DNA from: a virus
Length of the DNA stretch: 64,000 nucleotides
Virus record (IMG/VR): IMGVR_UViG_3300023215_000707
Span: 1,150 to 65,149 of that record
Reading direction: 5' to 3' (one strand)
Below are positions 30,823 through 35,833 of the stretch, piece by piece. The notes below the pieces were generated by a model. It worked only from the letters and a program-made list of their open reading frames with translations, ran no database searches and was not told the origin of the DNA. The position numbers and the translations under genes are program-made. Every line of letters begins with the position of its first letter. Positions within the stretch are counted from its first letter, which is position 1.

Positions 30823-30970
30823 CTTTTCAATGTTTTCAATGTTTTAACCCCCCCTCTCAACTACTACTCTACTCTACTCTACTCTACTCTACTCTACTAT
30901 ATACTACTTAAATTACTTAAATAACTTAAATAATACTATATTATATTAGTTAGGGGGGATAACCCCCCCA
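30823..30970. repeat. Iteron-like repeat cluster, candidate replication origin
   Basis: (TTTTCAATG)2, C7, (ACTCT)6 at 30866-30895, (ACTTAAATW)3, G6-ATAA-C7 hairpin; in a 750-bp ORF-free polarity switch. Confidence 0.55.
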
Positions 30971-33998: not shown

Positions 33999-34328
33999 TT
34001 AATTTGCTACATAATGATATGTCGCAGGGTTCACCTTAATGCGTGAACCATCCCATGCTTCACCATTTAGATACCATACCCAATTTTTCTGCACGATATG
34101 AACATTAGGTAAACCGTTGAGTCGTTCCTTTGTTGTTACTGATTGCCAGCCACCATCACAAATATACAAATCTCCGAAAATATCGAAACGGGCTATACAG
34201 TTACCATGTAAATACAACCCTCGTTCAATGTTACCTATTCCGAGTATAACTTGAGTATTGCCTCTCTTGAATTTATACCTATTTCTAAAAGCCCTTACTG
34301 CATCAATTGTTATTTGTCTTCGTGCCAT
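33999..34328 (-). CDS. Hypothetical phage protein
   Basis: LYLHGNCIA...SVTTKERLNGL motif; bounded by dyad 34379 and hairpin 33988. Confidence 0.65.
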   Translation of the reverse strand: MARRQITIDAVRAFRNRYKFKRGNTQVILGIGNIERGLYLHGNCIARFDIFGDLYICDGGWQSVTTKERLNGLPNVHIVQKNWVWYLNGEAWDGSRIKVNPATYHYVAN

Positions 34329-34405
34329 ATCCTAAGCCTCTATTATTATTCTTAAGGTTCTATTACTCAAAGTTTAGAACCATATGGTTATGCTTTGCTA
34401 AATAA

Positions 34406-34597
34406 CCTTGAAGAAAATTAAACAGGTGGGGGGGAACGCTGATGTGAGCGATAGAAAACAAGCCTGACTGACCAAACTGTTCATTGAAACGCTCCCCCCC
34501 CTTGAATGTCTAATTAATGGGAGAGATTAAGGACAAAAGTAGTTGTGGCCGACACACTACTACTGGATGCCCTTGAATCTCTCCTTGAATGTTTAAT
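34406..34597 (-). ncRNA. Candidate two-hairpin ncRNA punctuated by TTCAAGG repeats
   Basis: GGAGAGATT/AATCTCTCC with inner AGTAG/CTACT and TGTG/CACA; G7AGCG/CGTTC7; repeat at 34406, 34500, 34583. Confidence 0.55.
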
Positions 34598-34847
34598 TGA
34601 TTCTCCTTTCTTTAATAGTCCATGGTGGGTTTACTACCTCGTCTATCATTTCGGCAAATCGTCGTTTGTTGCGACCGTAAATTGCACCAGTCATTCTGTT
34701 CGCATCTAGCATAATTCGGGTGATGGCTGTCTTATTCATTCGGTCGATGTAGTTCTGCGCTTTGGGTTTGTAGCGGTATAGTGGTTGGTAAGAGGGTTTC
34801 CCATCTTGTAGTATTTCATATACTGAATCACTCATGCCCATAGTCAT
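34593..34847 (-). CDS. Hypothetical cassette protein
   Basis: Downstream of dyad 34885. Confidence 0.55.
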   Translation of the reverse strand: MTMGMSDSVYEILQDGKPSYQPLYRYKPKAQNYIDRMNKTAITRIMLDANRMTGAIYGRNKRRFAEMIDEVVNPPWTIKERRIN

Positions 34848-35000: not shown

Positions 35001-35231
35001 TTAATTTCCATATTTCTTCATTGTTGCATCAATTATGCGCTGGATTCGACTATTATCAAACTGCCCTAGTGAATATATCTTGAAATCCTCAAATTTTCCC
35101 GAAATGTAGTCTATCCTATGTTTGGGTTCATCATATATATTTTCAATATCCCATATATCCCTAGCAAACTCAAATAGATTAGTATTCCGAGTATAATAGA
35201 ATAGGTCTATTGCTCCTTGTAATGAAATCAT
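35001..35231 (-). CDS. Hypothetical cassette protein
   Basis: Followed by hairpin 34988. Confidence 0.55.
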   Translation of the reverse strand: MISLQGAIDLFYYTRNTNLFEFARDIWDIENIYDEPKHRIDYISGKFEDFKIYSLGQFDNSRIQRIIDATMKKYGN

Positions 35232-35456
35232 TTACTTCAACACCCCATTAGTCCATGTTCCCCATGATTTACCCATAGGATTGCCAAAAGACATTTTACT
35301 ATAAATGGCTATGATAGTTCCGTTCTCTAGGTTATCATCAAGGCAATAACTACCACCACCACCAAACATTGAGTAGTTATATCCATATATTTCTTCTCCA
35401 GCCTCAAGCCTACGCTTTAGGGCGGCTTTGCTCTTTGCTTCTACATACACCTTCAT
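35232..35456 (-). CDS. Hypothetical cassette protein
   Basis: Downstream of dyad 35495-35529. Confidence 0.6.
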   Translation of the reverse strand: MKVYVEAKSKAALKRRLEAGEEIYGYNYSMFGGGGSYCLDDNLENGTIIAIYSKMSFGNPMGKSWGTWTNGVLK

Positions 35457-35833
35457 GTCCTAATCATTTTATTAGACTTATAAGGAACTTATTGCTCAAA
35501 GTTTAGTTCCATATGGTATTAACTTTGAGATAAATACCCCCATCACTCTTCCTCATCATAATCTCCATCTTCACAGTTACAATATCCTGTAATTATTGAA
35601 CTTTTACATCGTGGGCATATCATTCTTCTTCACCTTCTGCTTCTTCTTGAATTTTTCTTAAATATCTTTTTATCCCTATCCAAAATGGGTGATTCATTCT
35701 ACTTCACCTTTATTTTTGGTAAATCTTGTTAGTAATACTATATGTTCAATGAGACATTTTCCACTACTGCATATGTTAGATACATCGGGGTCTATTACTG
35801 TATCACAATGTAAGCATAATGGGGTAAAATCAC

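Follow-up and report, generated by a model that had tools for sequence, protein, structure and literature searches.

In phage mRNAs, stable intercistronic hairpins, including those with C(UUCG)G loops, are located just after stop codons, as are bacterial intrinsic terminators. The hyperplastic regions of T4-type phages carry small composite promoter/stem-loop cassettes, termed PeSLs (promoter-early stem-loops) (Arbiol et al., 2010, PMC2839356; Comeau et al., 2014, PMC4122927). PeSLs behave as terminators in reporter assays and are points of recombination, with some crossovers falling inside the loop, and the formation of mini-circles has been shown (PMC2839356; PMC4122927). A PeSL-like motif of the haloarchaeal tailed virus HGTV-1 has been proposed to serve in transcription regulation and in shuffling (Sencilo et al., 2013, as described in PMC3950731). 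Archaeal terminators consist of runs of 4–7 U and do not require a hairpin; archaeal RNA polymerase is not known to use the hairpin-plus-U mechanism of bacteria (PMC8716108). Promoters, terminators and hairpins are not mentioned in the magrovirus literature examined. To our knowledge, no magrovirus has been cultivated so far.

The locus described here is part of a 72.8-kb IMG/VR virus entry of an estimated 78% completeness. Most of this entry makes up the window, i.e., the whole 64,000-nucleotide stretch of DNA that was analysed. Judged by gene content, the record is a magrovirus-type virus of marine group II archaea; marker genes in the window encode a family-B DNA polymerase, an ATP-dependent DNA ligase and a thermosome-type chaperonin. 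The G + C content is ∼32% and gene polarity flips near 36 kb. A thermosome-type chaperonin gene 39% identical to that of the virus is also found on a 46-kb contig (CALCEM010000066.1) binned in a 'Fretibacterium' metagenome-assembled genome; no other match was found in the collection of prokaryote genomes, and the contig may be viral and wrongly binned. The gene-free stretch at positions 34406–34597 forms two long hairpins, here called A and B. With moderate confidence, these are considered the stem-loop half of a PeSL-like composite terminator/promoter module that acts in RNA. The element would represent a regulatory trailer of an ordinary kind, in a virus group where none had been described before.

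Small genes without known families form an array at ∼31.3–36.4 kb, in which copies of a palindromic dyad centred on CCATATGG stand between the genes. Eleven such dyads are present in this interval versus 1.1 expected by chance. On the sense side of each array dyad there is a CCTT(A/G)A-type box, and an ATG follows ∼20 nt further on. The dyad and its left arm recur in 31 of 82 loci, which are mostly those of related magroviruses. Dyad and box are predicted to constitute the promoter/operator module of the next cassette. The 11 dyads, if they are promoters as predicted, parallel the repeated conserved promoter motif that PeSLs display in regions of small ORFans. The PeSL promoter, however, is of the sigma-70 type, whereas the host here is archaeal and the module combines a TATA-like box with a palindromic dyad; matches to a sigma-70-like promoter are not clearly enriched (32 versus 24.3 ± 5.2 in shuffles). 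The HGTV-1 motif, as described, differs in having its inverted repeat within the promoter motif, whereas a separate, sequence-variable hairpin stands upstream of a conserved dyad in the magrovirus. HGTV-1 also belongs to a different virus group with a different host, and the likeness is drawn from the published description of its motif.

The cassette of interest begins with an ORFan gene of 84 amino acids, present in the list of open reading frames (34593–34847, minus strand), and the hairpin element represents its 3′ trailer. The 84-amino-acid protein belongs to no family in Pfam, PHROG or PADLOC, although it has three close homologue clusters, at 96, 89 and 86% identity. Beyond the trailer lies a CCATATGG-centred dyad with a CCTTAAG box, a candidate promoter/operator (34351–34398, minus strand). 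It precedes a 109-amino-acid gene of the Kyano_Gp96 family, whose function is unknown (33999–34328, minus strand; PF23790, E 4.8e-17; phrog_554, E 7.5e-22). Elsewhere in the array, the 76-amino-acid cassette protein at 35001–35231 (minus strand) displays a weak partial PADLOC match to AbiEii (E 0.002, 15 bits, 48 residues), which is probably noise.

One relative of this region, a syntenic TARA contig of 1787 nt (L082), was retrieved from a metagenome scan and is the sole one. It encodes a copy of the 84-amino-acid protein that is 87% identical, carries the same candidate promoter/operator over ∼55 nt and, outside the gene-free stretch, matches the window at ∼97% identity across ∼550 nt. No further homologue of hairpin A, hairpin B or the promoter was found with exact and gapped DNA patterns in IMG/VR, with blastn and nhmmer against 80 related magrovirus loci, with queries of 271 nt and 1.5 kb against GenBank phage records, or with single-protein anchors in IMG/VR. 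An alignment anchored on the 109-amino-acid gene yielded only an unrelated phage (L083).

On the minus strand, 193 nt without a usable reading frame separate the stop codon of the 84-amino-acid gene from the dyad at 34380–34387, and the stretch of ∼190 bases thus runs directly from this stop codon to the next CCATATGG dyad. Neither a dyad nor a promoter box is found ahead of the stretch or of either hairpin. As the earlier note had stated, there is no credible open reading frame at 34406–34597, no frame having a usable start. A coding function can be rejected on this ground and also on that of the insertions and deletions of 8, 21 and 1 nt that separate hairpin B from its counterpart in L082. 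Two related possibilities were likewise discarded. An open frame that passes through the dyad in L082 shifts register relative to the window, and read-through of the 84-amino-acid gene would end after 10 codons of in-frame extension in the window. The two long stable hairpins previously noted were confirmed: a 201-nt stretch folds at −68.5 kcal/mol (z −7.45), a value that none of 200 shuffles reaches.

The heptamer TTCAAGG is found on the minus strand at 34583–34589, 34571–34577, 34500–34506 and 34406–34412. The earlier note had counted three copies at spacings of 83 and 94 nt; the spacings are correct, but the copies number four. Of the 16 copies in the window, 4 lie within these 190 nt; the total for the window is compatible with chance (12.6 expected). 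The repeats had been thought to punctuate an RNA for processing. Two of them, however, are the ends of an 83-nt indel, one is inside the stem of hairpin A, and the last, the third copy of the earlier note (34406–34412, minus strand), is a one-base variant in L082 and hence not conserved.

Hairpin B (34428–34500, minus strand) is a 73-nt two-level structure that is kept in L082. Its basal stem of 13 bp pairs a G-tract with a C-tract (34488–34500 with 34428–34440), includes seven G–C pairs contributed by these tracts and encloses 47 nt; an inner hairpin is found at 34456–34482. Runs of six or more G or C are rare in a window of 32% G + C, where they total 15. Another such site, a tight hairpin with six G and seven C separated by four bases, is present at 30953–30969 in an ORF-free region that is a possible origin, with a further seven-C run (30848–30854) 100 nt away. 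Strand preference of hairpin B was assessed by z-scores against shuffles of the same strand. In the window, the folding energy of the hairpin is −31.7 kcal/mol on the minus strand (z −3.6), compared with −26.6 kcal/mol on the plus strand (z −2.5); in L082 the difference is larger, with z −4.5 on the sense strand versus −0.9 on the antisense strand. Two G·U pairs of the basal stem would be A·C if read on the plus strand. The polarity of hairpin B fits an RNA of the gene (minus) strand in both genomes, and the argument from polarity made in the earlier note holds for this hairpin.

The comparison with L082 provides a further indication of a maintained structure. In the alignment of hairpin B, 39 of 39 testable pair cells form standard pairs, as against 55–69% when the partners are slid. 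The inner helix displays one double change between the genomes, from A–U to G–C. In the basal stem of L082, a C within the G-tract is matched by the mirror G in the C-tract where the window has G and a gap, and L082 has one additional G·U pair. The loop enclosed by the stem has been rewritten between the genomes by the three indels already mentioned. Crossovers inside stem-loop loops, as known from PeSLs, would explain such a rewritten loop between conserved stems. Hairpin B thereby passes the check for compensatory changes that had been proposed for it, as far as two sequences allow; the control for covariation is powerless with two sequences, since 255 of 500 shuffles reach the observed score. 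The changes are consistent with selection on RNA structure, and two sequences do not constitute proof of it.

On the 3′ side of hairpin B there is a U-rich tract (34411–34422, minus strand). Its longest run, 4 U at 34414–34417, starts ∼6 nt past the hairpin B stem, and the corresponding run in L082 is 6 U. Both lengths are within the range of 4–7 U, and the tract may represent an archaeal U-tract terminator. Runs of 4–6 U shortly past hairpin B in both genomes resemble the archaeal U-tract terminators that work with aCPSF1 (PMC8716108), but the hairpin would be an added element in comparison with these, for 3′-end protection or for pausing. Hairpin B also differs from a bacterial intrinsic terminator in that its loop is not short and the U-run does not immediately adjoin it; a scan for terminators of the bacterial type flagged neither hairpin.

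Hairpin A (34520–34584, minus strand) is a long imperfect palindrome that is absent from L082. It folds at −31.9 kcal/mol (z −7.45), compared with z −6.3 for the opposite strand, and being nearly symmetric between strands it is uninformative on polarity. Its outer stem pairs GGAGAGAT, the usual ribosome-binding motif, with the motif's own complement, and does so on both strands. GGAGAGAT is part of a recurrent translation-start context in this virus, as 7 of its 13 copies in the window are followed by an ATG after 4–5 nt; sites of the motif include 43976, 45187, 29826, 29345, 23635 and 33024. The 3′ arm of hairpin A was also considered as a promoter site, but this was rejected, as the box-like heptamer there lacks the AT-rich stretch that follows real boxes.

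A direct repeat of 19 nt bounds hairpin A. The first copy, R1 (34583–34601, minus strand), comprises the end of the 84-amino-acid gene, namely its final two codons and stop, together with the first TTCAAGG. The second, R2 (34500–34518, minus strand), is another copy of the gene end, with a TTCAAGG at the foot of hairpin B. R1 and R2 match at 17 of 19 positions, and both differences are silent in the frame of the 84-amino-acid gene, one being in the third base of an Ile codon and the other TAA versus TAG. Because the differences are silent, it is suggested that R2 was formerly a working gene end in another allele, although two differences provide a hint and not a test. L082 has a single copy of the 19-nt sequence, at the place of R2. 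Relative to L082, the window has 83 extra nucleotides that include hairpin A and are bounded by the repeat.

The array is a mosaic, to judge from the alignment with L082, with at least one breakpoint at a dyad module. This is concluded because of three differences between the two sequences. First, a breakpoint in homology was detected when window positions 35440–35660 (minus strand) were compared with L082:1–235. The two sequences are nearly identical from a position a few bases ahead of the dyad at 35509 onward, but show no relationship upstream of it. Such a pattern would be predicted if cassettes were exchanged by crossovers at dyad modules. Second, L082 contains at positions 1278–1436, opposite window position 34329, an extra open reading frame of 52 amino acids that belongs to no known family. 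The insertion point is precisely at the junction of leader and start codon of the 109-amino-acid gene, and the stop codon of the extra frame abuts that start codon. This insertion is away from any hairpin and represents a counter-example to differences bounded by modules. Third, the 109-amino-acid Kyano_Gp96-like gene contains a patch of ∼50% identity (34150–34284), with flanks 76–95% identical to L082, so that mosaicism reaches into this gene. The breakpoint at 35509 and the 83-nt indel are, like the indels and replacements found at PeSLs, bounded by modules between close relatives.

The position of the hairpins was also examined as a class, in a survey that covered all dyads in the window and in loci L002–L082, oriented by box and start codon. 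In 76 distinct regions, the 60 nt before the dyad fold at a mean of −11.6 kcal/mol versus −7.8 kcal/mol for a coding control (p 0.0014). Loops of the C(UUCG)G type number 16 on the sense strand and 0 on the antisense strand of the dyad-upstream regions. Stems of a G-tract paired with a C-tract are found repeatedly, as are double hairpins in tandem (e.g., L004, L030, L006 and L002). The distance from stop codon to dyad has a median of 47 nt, and the 193 nt of the present locus are long, though not unique. A stable stem-loop between an upstream stop and a downstream start, often with a polyG followed by a polyC, is also a feature of PeSLs. The sense strand of the 76 regions folds better than the antisense strand (p 5e-4), but so does plain coding sequence after dyads in the window and L002–L082 (53 versus 22, p 1e-5). 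The class-wide folding bias was therefore discarded as evidence for RNA, the coding controls sharing it through base composition. Energy of sense versus antisense cannot on its own demonstrate RNA function, because purine-skewed coding sequence displays the same bias.

With respect to the hairpins of phage mRNAs, the neighbouring cassettes are similar in their use of C(UUCG)G loops on the sense strand only. U-runs do not follow these small UUCG hairpins. Hairpins A and B, in contrast to the phage hairpins and to bacterial terminators, are much longer and have no tetraloop. In several related loci (L020, L029, L030, L033, L038, L044, L066 and L067), many of the genes that precede a hairpin and dyad end in several Glu codons followed by the stop. 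This common acidic gene end suggests either a shared C-terminal tag or a conserved junction.

The stretch would thus be the transcribed 3′ trailer of the 84-amino-acid gene. It would span the interval between the stop codon and the following dyad promoter, within a 'hyperplastic' magrovirus array of cassettes of small ORFans. Hairpin B would be the inherited part. Together with the U-tract it might stop or attenuate transcription arriving from upstream, and it might also shield the 3′ end of the mRNA from exonucleases; either effect, termination or 3′-end protection, would insulate the next promoter. The modules may double as homology or recombination boundaries for the shuffling of cassettes. 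Hairpin A would be a second stem-loop specific to this lineage. Its probable source is unequal recombination between two gene-end alleles, because the 19-nt repeat that bounds it contains the stop codon; alternatively, it may have been lost from L082 via deletion between the 19-nt repeats. One caveat is that a two-level hairpin B of 73 nt exceeds what an archaeal terminator requires.

Among the functions listed in the earlier note, an attenuator comes nearest to this reading and is the best supported. The stretch had been seen there as an ncRNA gene in a cassette slot of its own. It has neither dyad nor promoter box and directly abuts the stop codon of the 84-amino-acid gene, and in L082 the hairpin begins ∼10 nt past the stop codon, so that neither a separate slot nor a separate gene is indicated. 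The stretch is most likely an ordinary regulatory trailer rather than a new kind of RNA or a small RNA gene. The element may work like the stem-loop half of a PeSL, yet outside the T4 family and with a promoter of archaeal type that has a dyad. It differs from a PeSL in that the stem-loop is upstream of the whole promoter module and in that two stem-loops are stacked, hairpin B being a two-level structure. In PeSLs, termination is an observed activity, as is the formation of mini-circles; termination by the magrovirus element is predicted.

It is unlikely that the trailer is the source of one or more free-standing small RNAs, cut or made from it, that act in trans, for example by binding a viral or host protein. 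The great stability of the structure and a hairpin B more elaborate than a terminator needs, with a stem kept while its loop was rewritten, would be in keeping with such an RNA. Yet a promoter module precedes neither hairpin, and a search of 1.49 Mb of related virus DNA with a covariance model of hairpin B recovered nothing beyond the two sequences from which the model was built. Rfam 15 gives no match at gathering score in the window, and the best hit of a permissive scan is to SNORD14, at 19.5 bits versus the 64 needed (E 0.16). In a variant of the small RNA explanation, hairpin A would mask ribosome-binding sites through its 3′ arm, a complement of the ribosome-binding motif. The pairing of GGAGAGAT with its complement in the stem, and the seven copies of the motif 4–5 nt before a start codon, favour this variant, but the complementary arm is locked within a perfect stem and the closest relative, L082, lacks hairpin A altogether. 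The fuller proposal is highly improbable, namely that the trailer is processed into trans-acting small RNAs of which an opened hairpin A masks ribosome-binding sites and hairpin B forms a specific protein- or RNA-binding module. If it were true, hairpin A could time the translation of at least seven viral genes, and viruses of marine group II archaea would gain their first described regulatory RNA.

Several named RNA classes were considered in addition. There is no tRNA or tmRNA, and a tRNA-like element was rejected as no tRNA was detected. On the plus strand, a C/D-box small RNA or a hammerhead was rejected, as there is no Rfam match and the terminal stem would have A·C mismatches there; a CUGAUGA-type heptamer is intact on the antisense strand of L082 and has U for the final A in the window.

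The hairpins might also matter as DNA, as cruciform or single-strand sites for recombination, replication or protein binding during cassette exchange, loosely like integron attC sites. This is rated as decidedly unlikely. The breakpoints and indels between the window and L082 fall at repeat, hairpin and dyad modules, as such a role would predict, but the extra 52-amino-acid gene of L082 was inserted away from hairpins. Hairpin A folds about equally on both strands, whereas hairpin B clearly favours the gene strand in both genomes. GAA-type loops are stable in DNA, and the complement of a sense UUCG loop is a loop of this type; the UUCG loops are nevertheless strictly on the sense strand, 16 to 0. 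No tyrosine recombinase (PF00589) was found in the 72.8-kb record, estimated to be 78% complete, and an attC-like site was rejected for its absence.

A structure without function, left over neutrally from recombination and palindrome formation in a non-essential spacer, is quite improbable for the element and most plausible for hairpin A. This hairpin is a single-copy, near-perfect palindrome, as is expected of a young structure, and L082 dispenses with it. A neutral origin does not account for hairpin B, which keeps all of its pairs through substitutions and indels while the loop diverges, nor for the recurrence of hairpins at the same position across many relatives. An anti-CRISPR decoy RNA or a type III antitoxin-like (ToxI-like) repeat RNA, both named in the earlier note, is very improbable on grounds of architecture: short direct repeats beside the hairpins are all that recommends them, whereas the repeat unit of 10–19 nt, not 24–48 nt, and hairpins of 65–73 nt do not have the length of RNA anti-CRISPRs, Tandem Repeats Finder detects no array, one hairpin unit bears no relation to the other, the neighbouring genes show no domain of the ToxN or Abi type apart from the weak partial match of 15 bits, and no link to CRISPR is made in the magrovirus literature examined.

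Read as the stem-loop half of a composite terminator/promoter module, the stretch and its counterpart in L082 provide a small but tangible indication of how these abundant ocean viruses organise their arrays of small genes. RNA stem-loops linked to conserved promoter modules would punctuate the arrays, as in T4-type phages and one haloarchaeal virus. A stem-loop together with a conserved promoter module may serve as a rule for annotating cassette boundaries. The similarity to PeSLs further suggests that a common mode of assembling and shuffling accessory-gene cassettes arose in the viruses of bacteria and in those of archaea.
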